Source of the DNA: Escherichia coli
Lineage (GTDB): Bacteria; Pseudomonadota; Gammaproteobacteria; Enterobacterales; Enterobacteriaceae
Direction: 5' to 3' (one strand)
Assembly (NCBI RefSeq): GCF_050920415.1
Contig: NZ_CP169309.1
Length of the DNA stretch: 64,000 nucleotides
Every line of letters starts with the position of its first letter. Positions within the stretch are counted from its first letter, which is position 1. The translations under genes were made by a program, and so were the position numbers. Positions 15,696 to 47,539 of the stretch are shown here, in pieces. A model generated the notes under the pieces. It saw only the letters and a program-made list of their open reading frames with translations, had not been told where the DNA came from and made no database searches.

Positions 15696-17766
15696 TCTGG
15701 CCGCGATGCTGCGCCTGCCCGCAAACCTGAAATCGACACAATGGCAGATCCTTGCCGGACCGATTTTGATCCTGTTGATCTTGTCGATGATGGTGCTGCC
15801 ACTGCCCGCATTCATACTCGACCTGCTGTTCACCTTCAATATTGCCTTGTCGATCATGGTGTTGCTGGTCGCGATGTTTACCCAGCGCACGCTCGAGTTT
15901 GCTGCGTTTCCGACCATTCTGTTGTTTACCACCCTGTTACGTCTGGCACTTAACGTGGCTTCAACCCGTATCATTTTGATGGAAGGGCATACTGGCGCGG
16001 CGGCGGCAGGGAAGGTGGTCGAAGCGTTCGGTCACTTCCTCGTTGGTGGCAATTTCGCTATCGGTATCGTGGTGTTCGTCATTCTCGTGATCATCAACTT
16101 TATGGTTATTACCAAAGGTGCCGGGCGTATCGCAGAAGTAGGCGCGCGCTTTGTTCTCGATGGTATGCCAGGAAAGCAGATGGCGATTGATGCCGACCTT
16201 AACGCCGGATTGATTGGTGAAGATGAGGCGAAAAAACGCCGCAGTGAAGTCACTCAGGAAGCCGATTTTTACGGCTCAATGGACGGGGCAAGTAAGTTTG
16301 TTCGCGGCGATGCCATCGCCGGGATCCTCATCATGGTCATTAACGTTGTCGGCGGATTGCTGGTCGGTGTGCTGCAACATGGCATGAGCATGGGACATGC
16401 GGCGGAAAGTTATACGCTATTGACCATTGGTGACGGTCTGGTAGCACAAATTCCGGCGCTGGTGATTTCTACCGCCGCGGGGGTTATCGTTACGCGCGTC
16501 AGCACTGATCAGGATGTTGGCGAACAGATGGTGAATCAGCTTTTCAGTAACCCGAGCGTTATGTTGTTAAGCGCCGCCGTGCTCGGTTTACTCGGCCTGG
16601 TGCCTGGAATGCCGAACCTGGTATTTTTGCTGTTCACTGCCGGATTGCTGGGGCTGGCCTGGTGGATCCGCGGACGCGAACAAAAAGCGCCTGCCGAACC
16701 AAAACCGGTAAAAATGGCAGAGAATAATGCCGTTGTCGAAGCAACGTGGAACGATGTTCAACTGGAAGATTCTCTGGGAATGGAAGTGGGTTATCGACTG
16801 ATCCCGATGGTCGATTTTCAGCAGGATGGTGAACTACTGGGTCGTATTCGCAGTATTCGCAAGAAATTTGCTCAGGAAATGGGCTTTCTGCCGCCGGTAG
16901 TACACATTCGCGACAATATGGATCTGCAACCTGCCCGCTACCGTATTTTGATGAAAGGCGTGGAGATAGGCAGTGGTGATGCATATCCGGGGCGCTGGTT
17001 GGCAATAAACCCAGGTACCGCAGCTGGAACGTTACCTGGAGAGGCGACCGTCGATCCGGCATTTGGTCTGAATGCTATCTGGATTGAAAGTGCGCTAAAA
17101 GAACAGGCGCAGATTCAAGGGTATACCGTGGTTGAGGCCAGCACGGTGGTGGCTACGCATCTTAACCACCTCATAAGCCAGCATGCCGCAGAGCTGTTTG
17201 GTCGTCAGGAGGCGCAACAGCTGCTGGATCGTGTCGCTCAGGAGATGCCAAAGCTGACGGAAGATCTCGTTCCTGGCGTCGTCACGCTCACCACACTGCA
17301 TAAAGTGCTGCAAAATCTCCTCGATGAAAAAGTCCCGATTCGCGATATGCGCACTATTCTCGAAACGCTGGCGGAACATGCGCCCATCCAAAGCGATCCA
17401 CATGAATTAACCGCCGTCGTGCGCGTGGCGTTAGGACGGGCTATAACCCAGCAGTGGTTTCCTGGCAAAGATGAAGTCCATGTTATTGGCCTCGATACAC
17501 CGCTGGAACGTTTGTTACTACAGGCCTTGCAGGGTGGGGGCGGACTGGAGCCTGGGCTGGCGGATCGTTTACTGGCACAAACTCAGGAAGCGCTATCCCG
17601 TCAGGAGATGCTGGGTGCGCCGCCAGTATTATTGGTGAACCACGCGCTGCGACCATTATTGTCTCGCTTCCTGCGTCGCAGCCTGCCGCAGTTAGTGGTG
17701 CTGTCGAATCTGGAACTATCAGATAACCGACATATCCGTATGACGGCGACGATTGGCGGCAAATAA
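15688..17766 (+). CDS. flhA: Flagellar export apparatus protein FlhA
   Basis: 692 aa, MSNLAAMLRLPANLKSTQWQILAGPILILLIL...; 8-nt overlap with flhB. Confidence 0.96.
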   Translation: MSNLAAMLRLPANLKSTQWQILAGPILILLILSMMVLPLPAFILDLLFTFNIALSIMVLLVAMFTQRTLEFAAFPTILLFTTLLRLALNVASTRIILMEGHTGAAAAGKVVEAFGHFLVGGNFAIGIVVFVILVIINFMVITKGAGRIAEVGARFVLDGMPGKQMAIDADLNAGLIGEDEAKKRRSEVTQEADFYGSMDGASKFVRGDAIAGILIMVINVVGGLLVGVLQHGMSMGHAAESYTLLTIGDGLVAQIPALVISTAAGVIVTRVSTDQDVGEQMVNQLFSNPSVMLLSAAVLGLLGLVPGMPNLVFLLFTAGLLGLAWWIRGREQKAPAEPKPVKMAENNAVVEATWNDVQLEDSLGMEVGYRLIPMVDFQQDGELLGRIRSIRKKFAQEMGFLPPVVHIRDNMDLQPARYRILMKGVEIGSGDAYPGRWLAINPGTAAGTLPGEATVDPAFGLNAIWIESALKEQAQIQGYTVVEASTVVATHLNHLISQHAAELFGRQEAQQLLDRVAQEMPKLTEDLVPGVVTLTTLHKVLQNLLDEKVPIRDMRTILETLAEHAPIQSDPHELTAVVRVALGRAITQQWFPGKDEVHVIGLDTPLERLLLQALQGGGGLEPGLADRLLAQTQEALSRQEMLGAPPVLLVNHALRPLLSRFLRRSLPQLVVLSNLELSDNRHIRMTATIGGK

Positions 17767-21463: not shown

Positions 21464-22219
<756 letters not shown>

Positions 22220-22264
22220 TTTTTACCGTTGCATCATGTCGCCCAATATGATGCTTGCTCGTAC

Positions 22265-22298
22265 CAGGCCCCTGCAATTTCAACAGGGGCCTTTTTTT
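22265..22298 (+). terminator. Rho-independent terminator after cutC
   Basis: AGGCCCCTG...CAGGGGCCT hairpin followed by TTTTTTTAT. Confidence 0.7.
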
Positions 22299-29275: not shown

Positions 29276-30589
29276 CTAACTTACTGATTTTAATAGGCCT
29301 CTTGTGTCACTTTGGTGACTATGGGACATCATTGGGACATAATCTGCCAGCTTCTGATTCAGCATGGCGATCTGTTCTGCATTGCTGTCAGTCATCCATG
29401 CTCCGTATACATTGAACACCATCTGGGCACTTGCATGGCCCATCTGGCTGGCAATGAAGCTTGGATTTGCTCCGGCAGATAATGACCAGCACGCATAAGT
29501 GTGTCGTGACTGGTATGCCTTTCGATGCCTGATGCCTGCATGCTTAATGGCTGTTTCCCATGAGTCGCCAATGGAATCTACTTTGTAGATAAAACCTACC
29601 TGTTTGCTTTTTCTAACCACCTGGGGGTTAAATACGAAAGTACATTCATGATTCACTGAACGTCCATATTCACGTAGTTGAACCTTGATGTGGTGCTGCT
29701 TACCCAGTCTTGTCATTTCAGCCTGATTTTTCAGGACACTGATAGCGGGCTGGATAAGATGCACAACCCTGTTTGTACTTGCCTCAGTTTTAGGTAGAGT
29801 GAACTCGCCGAGTTTCGTATAATTACGCCTGATAGTAATTGTTCCTGCTTTCAGATCGATATCTTCCCATGCCAGGGAGACCAGTTCACCGTGACGCATT
29901 CCTGTGTACACAGCCAATGACCACAGGTTTTTCGTCTGCTGATGTCGGCAGGCATCTATCAGGCGAATAAATTCGTCACGAGTTAGCGGATCTGGTTCTG
30001 CCCTGGCTCTTTTAAGAGGCTTAATTCCCTCGAAGGGATTTGCTTCTAAGTAACCGTGATCTGCAGCAAACTGAAACATTCCAGCGATTGTCGTCATGTA
30101 ATAATTTACAGTAACGACGCTCCGTCCTTTTAGTGCTGCTTTGTTTTTCGTTGAATTCTGATACCCGGTCAGCAAATCTTTCCTGATATACAGCAATTCC
30201 TCTTTGGTTACCGATGACACCAGTCTGCTGCCTCCAATTTTCGGAACCATCGTTCTTGCAACGGATTCATAGCGATTGAATGCATTTGCAGAGATTTCCA
30301 TTCGTTTCAGATCCAGCCACTTTTCTTCAAGTTCTTTCACCGTAATTTCTTTTTTACTTACCCCAAAAGCCTGAAGGTTAGGGGAGTCAGGGAACTGTGC
30401 AGCATAATCAAAGCTTCCTGTGCGGATGGCAAAACATACCGATGTCCGCAGTTCCCCGGCGATCTTCCTGTTCTTGGCAGTGTCAGGGACACCAAGATTT
30501 TCCCTGACACGTTTACCTTTAAAATTAAACCAGATGCGTAATGTGCCGCCGTGGTTTTCGACGCCTGTTGGATATTTGACTTTATCCAT
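29276..30589 (-). CDS. int: Phage integrase (tyrosine recombinase)
   Basis: 437 aa; arm-binding N-terminus (GTLRIWFNFKGKRVRE) and C-terminal catalytic region; GGAGG RBS 6 nt upstream. Confidence 0.9.
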   Translation of the reverse strand: MDKVKYPTGVENHGGTLRIWFNFKGKRVRENLGVPDTAKNRKIAGELRTSVCFAIRTGSFDYAAQFPDSPNLQAFGVSKKEITVKELEEKWLDLKRMEISANAFNRYESVARTMVPKIGGSRLVSSVTKEELLYIRKDLLTGYQNSTKNKAALKGRSVVTVNYYMTTIAGMFQFAADHGYLEANPFEGIKPLKRARAEPDPLTRDEFIRLIDACRHQQTKNLWSLAVYTGMRHGELVSLAWEDIDLKAGTITIRRNYTKLGEFTLPKTEASTNRVVHLIQPAISVLKNQAEMTRLGKQHHIKVQLREYGRSVNHECTFVFNPQVVRKSKQVGFIYKVDSIGDSWETAIKHAGIRHRKAYQSRHTYACWSLSAGANPSFIASQMGHASAQMVFNVYGAWMTDSNAEQIAMLNQKLADYVPMMSHSHQSDTRGLLKSVS

Positions 30590-41689: not shown

Positions 41690-41943
41690 ACAACCAGACA
41701 ATGACTTTTACCCCTGAACAATTACGCAAACAGGCGCAGGAAATGCTGCGACAGGCGGAACAACTGGAAAAATCAGGCGTAACAAAAGATGCCATTCGTC
41801 GGGATATGGTACCCGCGCTCAGAGAACTGATGCAGGCAAAACACCGCGCACAAAAAGCGGTGGATGAGCTGGTGGATTGTGTGGCAGAGCTGGAAACAAA
41901 AGTTGGAAAATTTGAAAAACTGGTGCAGGAGGTACTGCGCTGA
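41686..41943 (+). CDS. Hypothetical coiled-coil protein (85 aa)
   Basis: ORF between the helicase and Q genes, overlapping both ends. Confidence 0.5.
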
Positions 41944-42308
41944 TGCGTGATATTCAGATGGTTCTTGAGCGTTGGGGGGCGTGGGTGGCAAATAACCACG
42001 AAGATGTTACCTGGTCGTCGATTGCTGCGGGATTCAAAGGACTGATTCCGTCAAAGGTTAAGTCACGTCCGCAATGTTGTGACGATGACGCGATGATCAT
42101 TTGTGGTTGCATGGCTCGTCTGAAAAAGAACAACCGTGACTTGCATGATCTGCTCGTGGATTATTACGTTGGGGGAATGACTTTTATGGCGCTTGCAAGG
42201 AAACATGGACGTTCAGATTGCTGGGTTGGTCGTTTGTTGCAAAAAGCAGAGGGGATCGTGGCTGGTATGTTAATGATGTTGGATGTCAAACTAGAGATGG
42301 AATATTAA
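41943..42308 (+). CDS. Late-gene antiterminator Q (QuuD/phage-82-like family)
   Basis: 121 aa, [34 protein letters not shown]...[16 protein letters not shown]; resembles E. coli DLP12 QuuD as recalled. Confidence 0.75.
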
Positions 42309-42475: not shown

Positions 42476-43663
42476 TTACTCCATGCTAAGTGAATCCTGA
42501 TAGCGCTTAAATGCCTCCGCGAAAGCTAGAGCAGCATCAGCATTTGATACCATGTATTCTTCTGTAATGCCTGTTTGGGACTGGAAATATAACTTTCCAT
42601 AAATGCAAATTGGGATTTGATAGTTATCTTTAAATCGTCGGTCTGGTGAGCCATCTTTATTTGTTTTTGCCCATGTATGCCCAGCTATGCTGGCATCACT
42701 CGGAACACCATCCTCTTCATGGAACCCTTGATGCTGCGCATTAATTTGTAATTCCCGTAAGTCAATCAGAGCAAATGCCCCATCGGGGCGAGGAATTACA
42801 GCAATACCCGGATAAAGCAATATATCGTCGCCATTGACATTTTCAAATCGCATTGCTCTTCCAGTAAAACGAATTAGATCTGTTGAAGCGAAATCAAATA
42901 CGACTGGATGACGATCAACTGCTCGTGTAGCTAACGTCCTTTCTGCAAACTGATCTATAGCTTTATCTGCGGTAATATCCCATTTTTTGATACTTGATTT
43001 TAAAATATCGAAAGCACGAATCATTGCTGCATAAGCCCGCTGTGAGGAATCGCTGGTTTCGAAATTAATGACGATTTTAGTGTTATCTTCCCAGGATACA
43101 AGACGAGATACTTCTGCTTGTATTTGTGGTAGCGTTGCTTCAAGTTCTGCAATGCGACGTTTATAAAACCATCGAAACAGGCTTGATTTACGTCGAGCCA
43201 ATTCACTCTTTTGTCTTGATTCTTCTGCAAGAGCCTCTTGTAAGTCAGATGCTATTTCCGCTCTTTGTTCTCGTGCTTTAACGATCAAGTCTCGTAAAGG
43301 TAAAAGAGATGTACTTGTCAAGGCCTCTACTGAGGCACTGGAGATTTCATTCATGCCTGTTTGTGGCATGTACATTTTTGCGTTTGATGGGGTGTTGTCT
43401 GAAATTAACTCGGGTGCATCAATATGAGATTCTACAGACGACGGATTTAGCTGAATGGTTGTGGATGGTTTGTCTTTGTATGGTAAACGAGGGGATGTAT
43501 ACGATAAACCAGATCCTGGTAACCCTAGAGTTGCTTTAATTCCTTTTTGGTTAACATTAACTGTGGCTCCGGGGACACCAAAACTTGCGCTTACCCCATG
43601 TTTACCGATGTTAAGGCGTACTCCGGGGAAAATGGTAAAAGTTTGTCTGAAGCGAAGAGACAT
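42476..43663 (-). CDS. Reverse-strand moron: 395-aa protein with DUF4236-like N-terminus, central coiled coil and unknown C-terminal domain
   Basis: N-terminus MSLRFRQTFTIFPGVRLNIGKHGVSASFGVPGATVNVNQKGIKATLGLPGSGLSYT matches the DUF4236 pattern; AGGGA RBS; oriented against late transcription; AT-rich flanks. Confidence 0.75.
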   Translation of the reverse strand: MSLRFRQTFTIFPGVRLNIGKHGVSASFGVPGATVNVNQKGIKATLGLPGSGLSYTSPRLPYKDKPSTTIQLNPSSVESHIDAPELISDNTPSNAKMYMPQTGMNEISSASVEALTSTSLLPLRDLIVKAREQRAEIASDLQEALAEESRQKSELARRKSSLFRWFYKRRIAELEATLPQIQAEVSRLVSWEDNTKIVINFETSDSSQRAYAAMIRAFDILKSSIKKWDITADKAIDQFAERTLATRAVDRHPVVFDFASTDLIRFTGRAMRFENVNGDDILLYPGIAVIPRPDGAFALIDLRELQINAQHQGFHEEDGVPSDASIAGHTWAKTNKDGSPDRRFKDNYQIPICIYGKLYFQSQTGITEEYMVSNADAALAFAEAFKRYQDSLSME

Positions 43664-43881: not shown

Positions 43882-44037
43882 TGCACAGAAAACCCCCAGC
43901 TAGGCTGGGGGTTCCGGAAAGCTTTCAGCTTTGAGCCAGTTATTAAAACCCCTTTTGATTTGTTAAAACACCTTGCGGTCTGGCAACTTCTTAACTCACT
44001 TATTGTTTCCACCCATGTTTTTGGATACCTGCTGTAG

Positions 44038-44074
44038 CTGTCAGATTAGCGCGATAATCTGACAGCTTTTTTTT
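44038..44074 (+). terminator. Strong rho-independent terminator
   Basis: 11-bp stem CTGTCAGATTA...TAATCTGACAG followed by T8. Confidence 0.75.
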
Positions 44075-44363
44075 ACAACGAATCCTTCTGATCTGCTTTT
44101 GCGGGGCTTTTTTGTATCCGCTCCATGCCCGGCGTATAAGCGGAGGTTGGTCAGTTTTCTAAAAATTGAAATACCTCACAATTCAGCCAGTTAATGGTTG
44201 TTTGTCTGGCGAAGAGTTTGTAAATAAAAAAACGCATGGTGAATCCCCCTAAGCGGCGGGGCGAATCAGCAGTCAGTTCTGGGATAATCGCGGGTTCGTA
44301 TGCTGATGCCGGACTCACCGGGAGGCACCCGGCACCATGCATCATGGTCATCCCCTTGTATGA

Positions 44364-44389
44364 TACCCCTCTCCGGAGGGGTATTTTTT
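44364..44389 (+). terminator. Rho-independent terminator
   Basis: TACCCCTC-tccg-GAGGGGTA followed by TTTTTT. Confidence 0.7.
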
Positions 44390-44822
44390 GGATAAAAAAG
44401 CCCGCGCTGGGAGGCACGGGCGGCAAGGAATAAAACGTGAAGAAATTTTCACAGGCGCATAATAATCCGATGTTGCCAGATTTTGCAACTGCATCATCTG
44501 GTTATTATGTGAGCTGGAAAATCAGATTCTGTATGGACTGAAGCCATGCTGTTATTCAGGGCCAAAGAACGGACTTTTTCTTCCGCCTTTCAGGTAACGA
44601 TTAATGAGAAAAAGACTGAAATGCCCCCTCGGGGAGGAGGATAGTAGAAAAAAGAACCCGCCAGCAAAAATATTGGGGGGATGAACAGCTTTCGCTACTC
44701 TGGTTGCTGGCGGGTATAGCTCCTCATGAATAAGAATGTCGCGGTATTTTTTAATGGAAATGAGAATCATTGTCAACTGATTGCGTGTGTTGTCTTCATA
44801 CATGACTGGTAAAGGTGATTCA

Positions 44823-44886: not shown

Positions 44887-45102
44887 ATGTATCAGATGGA
44901 AAAAATATCAACAGGCATTGCCTACGGCACCTCCGCAGGCAGTGCTGGCTACTGGTTTTTACAGTGGCTTGATCAGGTCAGCCCGTCACAGTGGGCTGCG
45001 ATTGGTGTACTGGGAAGTCTGGTTCTGGGCTTTCTGACTTATCTGACGAATCTGTACTTCAAAATCAGAGAAGACAGAAGAAAGGCTGCGAGAGGAGAGT
45101 AA
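44887..45102 (+). CDS. Holin (EssD/phage-21 S-like, class II)
   Basis: [71 protein letters not shown], 71 aa, closely resembles DLP12 EssD as recalled. Confidence 0.85.
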
Positions 45103-45106
45103 TATA

Positions 45107-45457
45107 ATGGTCCAAAACTATGAAATGATTGTGAAAGGGATCCGCAATTTTGAGAATAAAGTTACGGTAACTTTAGCATTACAGGACAAAGAACGCTTTG
45201 ACGGTGAAATTTTTGACCTGGACATCTCGCTGGACCGTGTTGAAGGTGCCGCGCTGGAGTTTTATGAGGCAGTAGCCAGAAGGAGCATCAGACAGGTCTT
45301 CCTGGATGTTGCTGCCGGGTTATGTGAAGGGGATGAGCAGTCGCCGGAAAAGCGCCCCGTAATTTTAGAGGCGCAGAATGTGTGGATAACCTACAAAGGA
45401 AAGCTACCAGGAAGAATTACTGGTTCTCTGAAGACTCCTCCGGAATCACAACCTTAA
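45107..45457 (+). CDS. Hypothetical protein (116 aa) inserted between holin and endolysin
   Basis: ORF MVQNYEMIVKGIRNFENKVTV... with no TM segment or signal peptide. Confidence 0.5.
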   Translation: MVQNYEMIVKGIRNFENKVTVTLALQDKERFDGEIFDLDISLDRVEGAALEFYEAVARRSIRQVFLDVAAGLCEGDEQSPEKRPVILEAQNVWITYKGKLPGRITGSLKTPPESQP

Positions 45458-45520
45458 GTCACTGACCGGAACAGATAAACCTGTCCGTGGGCAGAAACCG
45501 ATAAATCCTGATAAATATCC

Positions 45521-46054
45521 ATGAACGCAAAAATCAGATACGGCCTGTCGGCTGCCGTTCTGGCACTGATTGCCGTCGGTGCTCCCGCGCCTGATATTCT
45601 CGACCAGTTTCTGGATGAAAAAGAAGGTAACCACACAACGGCATACCGCGATGGTTCCGGCATCTGGACCATCTGTCGGGGTGCCACGATGGTGGATGGA
45701 AAACCCGTTTTTCCCGGTATGAAACTGTCGAAGGAAAAATGCGACCAGGTTAACGCCATTGAACGTGATAAGGCGCTGGCATGGGTGGAGCGCAATATTA
45801 AAGTACCACTGACCGAACCACAGAAAGCGGGTATAGCGTCATTTTGTCCCTATAACATTGGCCCCGGTAAGTGTTTCCCGTCGACGTTTTATAAGCGGCT
45901 GAATGCCGGTGATCGTAAGGGTGCATGCGAGGCGATTCGCTGGTGGATAAAAGATGGTGGGCGCGATTGCCGCATACGTTCAAATAACTGCTATGGACAG
46001 GTTATTCGTCGTGACCAGGAAAGCGCATTAGCCTGTTGGGGGATAGATCAGTGA
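45521..46054 (+). CDS. SAR-endolysin (lysozyme with N-terminal signal-anchor-release domain)
   Basis: 177 aa; hydrophobic N-terminus [18 protein letters not shown] followed by a lysozyme-like domain. Confidence 0.8.
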
Positions 46055-46515
46055 GCAGAGTCGCCGCGATTATTTATGCTCTGGTTATCTGCATCATCGT
46101 CTGCCTGTCGTGGGCGGTCAATCATTACCGTGATAACGCCATCGCCTACAAAGAACAGCGTGATAAAAAAGTCAGTGAGCTGAAGCAGGCGATCGCCACC
46201 ATCGCTGACATGCAGCAGCGTCAGCGTGATGTTGCTGCGCTCGATGCAAAGTACTCGAGAGAATTAGCCAATGCGAAAGCTGAAAATGAAACTCTGCGCG
46301 CTGATGTTGCCGCTGGTCGTCGTCGGTTGCACATCAAAGCAGTCTGTCAGTCAGTGCGTGAAGCCACCACCGCCTCCGGCGTGGATAATGCAACCAGCCC
46401 CCGACTGGCAGACACCGCTGAACGGGATTATTTCACCCTCAGAGAGCGGCTGATGACGATGCAGATGCAACTGGAAGGGGCACAGGAGTATATCCGCACT
46501 CAGTGCATTAAGTAG
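46051..46515 (+). CDS. Spanin inner-membrane subunit Rz (i-spanin)
   Basis: GTG start overlapping the endolysin stop; N-terminal TM then coiled coil. Confidence 0.75.
46271..46453 (+). CDS. Spanin outer-membrane lipoprotein Rz1 (o-spanin), embedded in the +1 frame of Rz
   Basis: Lipobox LVVVGC followed by a proline-rich segment PPPPPAW; entirely nested in Rz. Confidence 0.75.
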
Positions 46516-46557
46516 CCTTTTTATCGTGGTAAACATTTCGCAGGGTATGAGGTATTT

Positions 46558-46908
46558 ATGCCATCACGAATCCCACGCGCCTGCCGTAAGCGTGGATGTG
46601 CAGGTACAACCACAGACAGTTCTGGTTACTGCGATAAACATCGTGGCGAAGGATGGGTACAGCATCAACGCGGACTGAGCCGCCACCAGCGTGGCTATGG
46701 CTCGAAATGGGATGCCATACGTGCGCGCATACTGAAGCGTGATAATCATCTGTGTCAGAACTGCCTGCGCAATGGGAGAGCCGTTGAAGCCAGAACTGTG
46801 GACCACATCATTCCGAAAGCTCATGGTGGCACGGATGCAGACAGTAACCTGCAGAGTCTGTGCTGGCCCTGTCATAAAGCAAAAACAGCGCGCGAACGCA
46901 TCAATTGA
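46558..46908 (+). CDS. HNH endonuclease (terminase-associated)
   Basis: 116 aa; Cys-rich; HNH motif DHIIPKAHGGTDADSNLQSLCWPCH. Confidence 0.8.
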   Translation: MPSRIPRACRKRGCAGTTTDSSGYCDKHRGEGWVQHQRGLSRHQRGYGSKWDAIRARILKRDNHLCQNCLRNGRAVEARTVDHIIPKAHGGTDADSNLQSLCWPCHKAKTARERIN

Positions 46909-47056: not shown

Positions 47057-47539
47057 ATGTCAGGACCTCCGAAAACCCCGCCACGCCTGCATTTGATACG
47101 AGGCAACCCCTCAAAGCGTCCCGTTAAAGACCACAAAAAAACCGCTAAAAAGGATGAAAAAGGTCTTCCTAAAATTCCGCAGCATTTAGGGGCTCAGGGG
47201 AAGTACTGGTTCAGGCGAATGGCGGAAGAGCTGAATGCGGAAGGGATCATTTCTCAGCTTGATGCACGTGCGCTCGAGTTGCTGGTGGAAGCCTACACCG
47301 AATATCGGCATCACTGCGAAACACTCGATGTTGAGGGGTATACTTACCGCACGGAAACGCAGAGCGGTGATGTACTGATTAAGGCGCACCCCGCGGCGGC
47401 AATGAAAGCGGATGCCTGGAAGCGGATCCGGGCAATGCTTGCAGAGTTTGGTATGTCACCGGCAAGCCGGGCTAAAGTAAATATCGCCGGACCGGATGAT
47501 GTTGATCCGCTGGCGGAGCTTTTAAAAGCGAGAGACTGA
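47057..47539 (+). CDS. Terminase small subunit
   Basis: 160 aa, directly upstream of and overlapping the large terminase; basic N-terminus. Confidence 0.75.
   Translation: MSGPPKTPPRLHLIRGNPSKRPVKDHKKTAKKDEKGLPKIPQHLGAQGKYWFRRMAEELNAEGIISQLDARALELLVEAYTEYRHHCETLDVEGYTYRTETQSGDVLIKAHPAAAMKADAWKRIRAMLAEFGMSPASRAKVNIAGPDDVDPLAELLKARD

Follow-up and report, generated by a model that had tools for sequence, protein, structure and literature searches.

Lambda-like nested spanin genes in the predicted lysis cassette of a lambdoid Escherichia coli prophage

The two-component spanins of the lambda family are the closest described relatives of the locus considered here, and their architecture, their motifs and the covariation of Rz E150 with Rz1 R59 have all been published, such that the feature itself is already known. 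In lambda (NC_001416), Rz is annotated at 45966–46427 and Rz1 at 46186–46368, with the same nesting of the second gene within the first as is reported below. The transmembrane domain (TMD) of lambda Rz comprises residues 1–24; Rz C99 and C152, together with Rz1 C29, are the cysteines of homotypic disulfides; Cys20 of Rz1 is the lipoylated residue; and the penta-proline of Rz1 is essential (PMC5295617). Among lambdoid relatives, compensating charge-to-polar changes occur at Rz position 150 and Rz1 position 59, and this covariation is likewise on record (PMC5295617). [quoted passage not shown]

This report assesses a pair of nested genes within a window of E. coli DNA, i.e. the whole 64,000-nucleotide stretch that was analysed (contig NZ_CP169309.1 of assembly GCF_050920415.1). 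Gene anatomy, motifs, homology and dual-frame conservation are documented for the pair, and the two genes almost certainly encode the Rz and Rz1 subunits of a lambda-type two-component spanin and are the last lysis-cassette genes of a lambdoid prophage. The value of the finding is one of annotation rather than of new biology, as it correctly locates where the lysis cassette of a lambdoid prophage ends and recovers an o-spanin gene of the kind that automatic pipelines usually miss; at the RefSeq locus of E. coli PMV-1, which is 98 % identical, only a 'lysis protein' is named.

The Rz and Rz1 genes and their predicted products

The first-pass annotation had placed the spanin genes at 46036–46515. 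An ORF does occupy that span, namely a TTG-initiated frame of 159 aa on the plus strand that contains Rz; however, the TTG at 46036 is most likely nothing but the earliest possible, mechanical start of the ORF, with Rz itself most likely beginning at the GTG at 46051. The latter start is favoured because it overlaps the stop codon of the upstream endolysin gene (GTGA), because its Shine-Dalgarno sequence, GGGGGA, is good (−8.4 kcal/mol vs −4.3 kcal/mol for the TTG), because lambda Rz has its Met1 at the aligned position, and because RefSeq starts an identical protein of 154 aa there in E. coli PMV-1. So delimited, the predicted i-spanin gene runs from GTG to TAG at 46051–46515 on the plus strand and encodes 154 aa. 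In addition to its homology with lambda Rz, the protein matches Pfam PF03245 (Phage_lysis) with 167.2 bits against a cutoff of 25.4 (E = 2.4e-49) and PHROG 13 ('Rz-like spanin') at 7.9e-77, and the exact protein is found on approximately 1000 contigs in public collections as 'lysis protein', under a name that derives from Shigella sonnei. NCBIfam returned no match for Rz, Rz1, the holin or the YdfR-family protein, and there is thus no curated equivalog name in that resource for any of them. Two antisense ORFs beneath Rz and Rz1 (46351–46536 and 46221–46337, both on the minus strand) are without a Pfam match and were set aside as mechanical ORFs.

By analogy with its lambda counterpart, Rz would be a type II inner-membrane protein, consisting of an N-terminal transmembrane helix and a periplasmic two-helix domain with a flexible linker. 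The putative transmembrane segment, residues 4–22 (46060–46116, plus strand), has the highest 19-residue Kyte-Doolittle mean in the protein (2.73) and aligns with the lambda Rz TMD; a hydropathy scan revealed no second hydrophobic segment beyond it, and a single N-terminal TMD is therefore predicted. An AlphaFold2 model, built on an alignment of eight sequences, gives a helix at residues 2–97, an unstructured linker of low confidence at residues 98–118 and a second helix at residues 119–153, a layout that matches the lambda order of TMD, CC1, linker and CC2 (PMC5295617). At 0.28, the monomer model has a low pTM, as is usual with proteins of extended helical shape. When heptad periodicity was assessed with a crude, home-made test, the score of residues 119–146 was reached by only 2 of 2000 shuffles; for the first helix, the same crude test gave 881 of 2000, leaving coiled-coil periodicity unsupported there. 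Cysteines occur at positions 99 and 152, just as in lambda Rz, and the invariant residues D65 and Y147 are likewise present.

The gene for the predicted o-spanin lipoprotein precursor, Rz1, begins with an ATG and occupies 46271–46453 on the plus strand, encoding 60 aa. Its product matches Pfam PF06085 with 71.1 bits (cutoff 27.9; E = 6.4e-20) and PHROG 3198 at 3.2e-30, and public collections list the exact protein, on approximately 1000 contigs, under the name 'Rz1 family lipoprotein'. The embedded frame was searched for a lipoprotein signal, and one was found. After a basic N-terminus, with four Lys or Arg among the first seven residues, there is a hydrophobic core that leads to Cys at position 20, and residues 15–20 (46313–46330, plus strand) form the lipobox LVVVGC, which matches a PROSITE PS51257-style rule and is identical in lambda Rz1. 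Cys20 is thus predicted to be the lipidated first residue of a mature protein of 41 residues, nine of which are prolines. As in lambda Rz1, the mature N-terminus reads C-T-S, with Thr at +2 and Ser at +3; because there is no Asp at +2, the protein lacks the inner-membrane retention (Lol-avoidance) signal and is predicted to be sorted to the outer membrane. Further along the chain, Cys29 (46355–46357, plus strand), the equivalent of the disulfide residue of lambda Rz1, stands just upstream of five consecutive prolines, P32–P36 (46364–46378, plus strand), which lie inside a proline-rich region and correspond to the lambda P5 motif. The lipobox and the poly-Pro segment that had been noted at first pass were therefore both recovered, each at a defined position.

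The region for initiation of Rz1 translation, at 46249–46270 on the plus strand, lies within Rz and carries a weakened Shine-Dalgarno sequence. Where lambda has AAGGAG and 933W has AGGGAG, the sequence here reads AGAGAA, and the energy of the corresponding anti-Shine-Dalgarno duplex is −3.0 kcal/mol, as opposed to −8.3 and −8.0 kcal/mol, respectively. Two substitutions, both of them synonymous in Rz, are responsible for the weakening, and E. coli PMV-1 and the phage record vB_EcoM-606R7 carry the identical variant. This may lower the synthesis of Rz1, or it may have no consequence. It is the sole trait of the locus that was not previously described, and a minor one.

The lysis cassette and its prophage

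On the basis of sequence, Rz and Rz1 are placed at the end of a phage-21-type lysis cassette within a late operon. The first-pass annotation had called a lysis cassette at this location, and that call fits the succession of genes for a holin of the S21 family, a lysozyme and the two spanins downstream of a gene for a Q antiterminator (41943–42308; Pfam, 1.9e-51). The holin gene (44887–45102, plus strand) encodes a 71-aa class II protein that falls in the family of the phage 21 pinholin S, matching PF04971 ('Bacteriophage P21 holin S') at 2.6e-35; it has two candidate starts, Met1 and Met4, at the ATGs at 44887 and 44896, and its RefSeq homologue is a 216-bp gene for a 'class II holin family protein'. 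The interval between holin and endolysin is taken up by a YdfR-family (DUF1327) gene at 45107–45457 on the plus strand (Pfam, 2.7e-42), which has a strong Shine-Dalgarno sequence and has a 'YdfR family protein' as its counterpart at the same place in PMV-1 and in phage records. There follows, at 45521–46054 on the plus strand, the gene for a 177-aa endolysin of the T4-lysozyme type (PF00959, Phage_lysozyme, 1.4e-24). Among 5426 complete E. coli genomes, 765 contain matches to at least 80 % of the cassette.

The spanins had also been taken, at first pass, as confirmation that the endolysin is of the SAR type, and here the argument fails. The lambda endolysin is a soluble, non-SAR transglycosylase released by a canonical holin. 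Since lambda pairs spanins that are 84–90 % identical to those described here with that unrelated endolysin, the presence of Rz and Rz1 cannot confirm an SAR endolysin. Support for such an assignment must come from the holin and the endolysin themselves, and on those grounds it is plausible. The holin belongs to the P21 holin S family, and the endolysin matches the phage 21 lysozyme structures 3HDE (4e-16) and 3HDF (7e-16), as well as RrrD (4ZPU), and has no similarity to lambda R in a direct comparison. Additionally, the endolysin contains the triad E35-X8-D44-X5-T50, in agreement with the pattern E-X8-D/C-X5-T, and its N-terminal part, rich in Gly and Ala, is weakly hydrophobic; residues 8–21 form an Ala-, Gly- and Ser-rich stretch, and the most hydrophobic 19-residue segment has a Kyte-Doolittle value of 1.87, vs 2.73 for the Rz TMD. 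Its single A-x-A-like site is followed by Pro (VGA|P), and a Pro in that position disfavours cleavage by signal peptidase I. As a separate observation, the endolysin ATG at 45521 differs from the starts of the holin, YdfR, Rz and HNH genes in that no Shine-Dalgarno-like match precedes it (45499–45523; duplex energy +0.3 kcal/mol).

Downstream of Rz, a gene for an HNH endonuclease (46558–46908) directly precedes the gene for a P27-family small terminase (47057–47539), an order that is the usual HK97-like packaging arrangement. A consensus scan detected no terminator-like site between Rz and the HNH gene, and the lysis and packaging genes are thus apparently co-transcribed. The prophage is a mosaic. 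A search for an identical prophage in complete E. coli genomes found none that covers more than 77 % of positions 30000–54999 of the window, and a sibling prophage in E. coli UTAK-5 shares the modules for replication, terminase and head but has an entirely unlike lysis cassette at the corresponding position. That cassette (15863–16900 of the UTAK-5 record) comprises two holins and an M15 metallopeptidase, has no annotated spanin, and illustrates the swapping of modules.

Several other features of the surrounding DNA were observed. Between the Q antiterminator and the lysis genes there is a cargo slot, which is here filled by a 395-aa DUF4236 ORF (42476–43663, minus strand), in PMV-1 by an AB5-toxin pair (a subtilase-family B subunit and a scabin-related ADP-ribosyltransferase), and in UTAK-5 by an IS66 element and an AraC regulator. 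The leader between the antiterminator and the holin holds Rfam matches to STnc490 (43891–44005) and STnc100 (44205–44393), as well as several terminator-like hairpins, including those at 44036–44067 and 44362–44385; the STnc490/STnc100 region probably corresponds to the leader and terminators of the late promoter. Farther to the left are two tandem copies of a pair of isrK sRNA and C4 antisense RNA (36828–37016 and 37481–37669), all with Rfam scores above the gathering threshold. These adjoin ORFs for Rha/Ash-type regulators (36753–37433 and 37415–38287) and look like a duplicated antirepressor control module in the style of P1/P7. A full-length match to the MicL sRNA (366 bits) at 21991–22298 represents the host chromosome, in the cutC region, left of the prophage.

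Given that this flank shows the element to be chromosomally integrated, one may ask whether the spanin genes, although intact, are relics, functionally silent or attenuated, in a prophage that has ceased to lyse its host, with the weak ribosome-binding site of Rz1 as an early sign of decay. Relic copies of this sort have an analogue in RzoD, RzoR and RzoQ, which reside in cryptic prophages of E. coli K-12. In keeping with that explanation, two Rz-synonymous changes have converted the AAGGAG or AGGGAG of Rz1 into AGAGAA, and the endolysin start is devoid of a Shine-Dalgarno-like match. However, all of the ORFs in the cassette are full length, as are the large ORFs around it that are of replication, terminase, portal, capsid and tail size, and the weak variant also exists in vB_EcoM-606R7, a sequence deposited as a phage genome. 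Furthermore, the exact proteins recur on approximately 1000 contigs, and the Rz1 frame is under constraint in the closer of the comparisons given below. A relic is thus improbable, and Rz and Rz1 are better viewed as the spanin subunits of a lambda-type lysis cassette.

Coding in two frames

Relative to Rz, in frame 0, Rz1 is read in frame 1; i.e. it occupies the +1 frame over Rz codons 74–135 and lies wholly inside Rz. The full embedding of Rz1 in the +1 frame of Rz, which was the central claim of the first-pass annotation, is upheld by homology, by the anatomy of the two products and by comparison across loci, and the lambda Rz/Rz1 architecture shows the same nesting. How much an open alternative frame signifies on its own was gauged with 20,000 synonymous recodings of Rz, 42 % of which opened an alternative frame for 50 aa or more and only 1.75 % of which gave such an ORF with a lipobox. 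This control is a weak null because the protein sequence of Rz already bears the co-evolution with Rz1. By itself, therefore, the open +1 frame is uninformative; the rarity resides in the lipobox, and it is homology and conservation that are decisive.

As to conservation, an embedded +1-frame ORF of 60–65 codons with a lipobox is present at nine of nine homologous loci, i.e. the window itself, E. coli PMV-1, Perceval, lambda, 933W, ES18, mEp460, phi458 and a Hafnia phage. In the Hafnia phage, it has been kept although the Rz protein is only 35 % identical. The third codon positions of Rz, which in the overlap are the second positions of Rz1, are variable in 58 % of the columns of a codon alignment inside the Rz1 overlap, vs 91 % of those outside it, and this suppression of third-position variation is the pattern that dual coding predicts. 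Synonymous changes in Rz follow the same course, numbering 4 of 56 inside the overlap and 17 of 70 outside it when lambda is the comparator (p = 0.015) and 3 of 56 and 20 of 68, respectively, when it is Perceval (p = 0.0008). The contrast between inside and outside was not significant vs the distant ES18, mEp460, phi458 and Hafnia sequences.

The notion that the embedded ORF is no gene and simply a chance open frame in a real Rz, which could draw on the 42 % of recodings that open an alternative frame of at least 50 aa and on the ORF being unannotated in RefSeq and in most phage records, has next to no probability and is refuted by the homology and conservation data, given the Pfam Rz1 match at E = 6.4e-20, the 90 % identity with lambda Rz1, a lipobox in just 1.75 % of recodings, the retention of ORF and lipobox at all nine loci, down to an Rz of 35 % identity, the suppressed third-position variation in Rz, and the documented gaps in o-spanin annotation, which make absence from the records a weak argument (PMC6139136).

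Comparison with lambda and other spanins

Based on the mechanism described for the lambda family (PMC5295617, PMC6139136), Rz would be anchored in the inner membrane, and Rz1, produced from a separate +1-frame start within Rz, would be lipidated and sorted to the outer membrane. Each subunit would form a disulfide-linked homodimer, via C99 and C152 in the case of Rz and C29 in that of Rz1, and the C-termini of the two proteins would bind to one another across the periplasm. During lysis, the S21-type pinholin would depolarize the membrane and the endolysin would then degrade the murein; with the murein gone, the spanin complex would collapse and fuse the inner and outer membranes, thereby removing the final barrier to phage release. 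Export, lipidation, complex formation, disulfide linkage and membrane fusion are all ascribed to the present pair by analogy with the lambda proteins.

The likeness to lambda is extensive. Rz is 84 % identical to lambda Rz, and Rz1 is 90 % identical to lambda Rz1 (E = 2e-38). In both systems, the Rz1 start falls at Rz codon 74, the frame is +1, and the gene stops within Rz; the lengths are 154 aa here and 153 aa in lambda for Rz and 60 aa for Rz1; and the same landmarks recur, i.e. LVVVGC, Cys20, Cys29 and P5 in Rz1 and the TMD, Cys99 and Cys152 in Rz. There are, however, a number of differences. The start codon of Rz is GTG here and ATG in lambda, and Rz is one residue longer at its C-terminus, ending in QCIK rather than QCR. 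Within Rz1, A43 stands in the place of P43, giving nine rather than ten prolines in the mature part, and the Shine-Dalgarno sequence is weaker. The salt bridge between E150 and R59 of the lambda proteins is replaced by Rz T150 and Rz1 S59, in line with the published charge-to-polar covariation. Finally, the partners are not the same, being an S21-type pinholin and a lysozyme-type endolysin here and the S105 holin and the R transglycosylase in lambda.

A more far-reaching interpretation of these differences can be entertained, in which Rz1 is made at far below the lambda level, yielding an attenuated or Mg2+-conditional spanin, or else is translated, within the reading frame of Rz, independently of a Shine-Dalgarno sequence. 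Were this so, the polar T150/S59 interface combined with the weak Shine-Dalgarno sequence would make the locus a functionally distinct allele of the classical system, which is unlikely.

Among the other lambdoid phages and prophages with phage-21-type cassettes, the Stx phage 933W resembles the present locus in the order of holin, endolysin and Rz/Rz1 and in that Rz and an embedded Rz1 are both annotated. It differs in that ant separates R from Rz and bor follows the latter, whereas here the YdfR gene lies between S and R and a terminase module of the HNH/P27 type comes after Rz. The PMV-1 prophage and vB_EcoM-606R7 have the same order of holin, YdfR, endolysin and Rz/Rz1, with 98 % identity over the entire 2.1 kb of the cassette. 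In phi458 (1281–1748), the C-terminal Cys152 of Rz is replaced by Arg and Rz1 retains its periplasmic Cys, which agrees with the published finding that either disulfide suffices.

Beyond the lambdoid phages, the present pair can be set against the other known spanin arrangements. In contrast to P2 and T4, the o-spanin gene neither extends past the i-spanin gene nor sits outside of it, and, in contrast to T1 with its gp11, two proteins are encoded rather than one.
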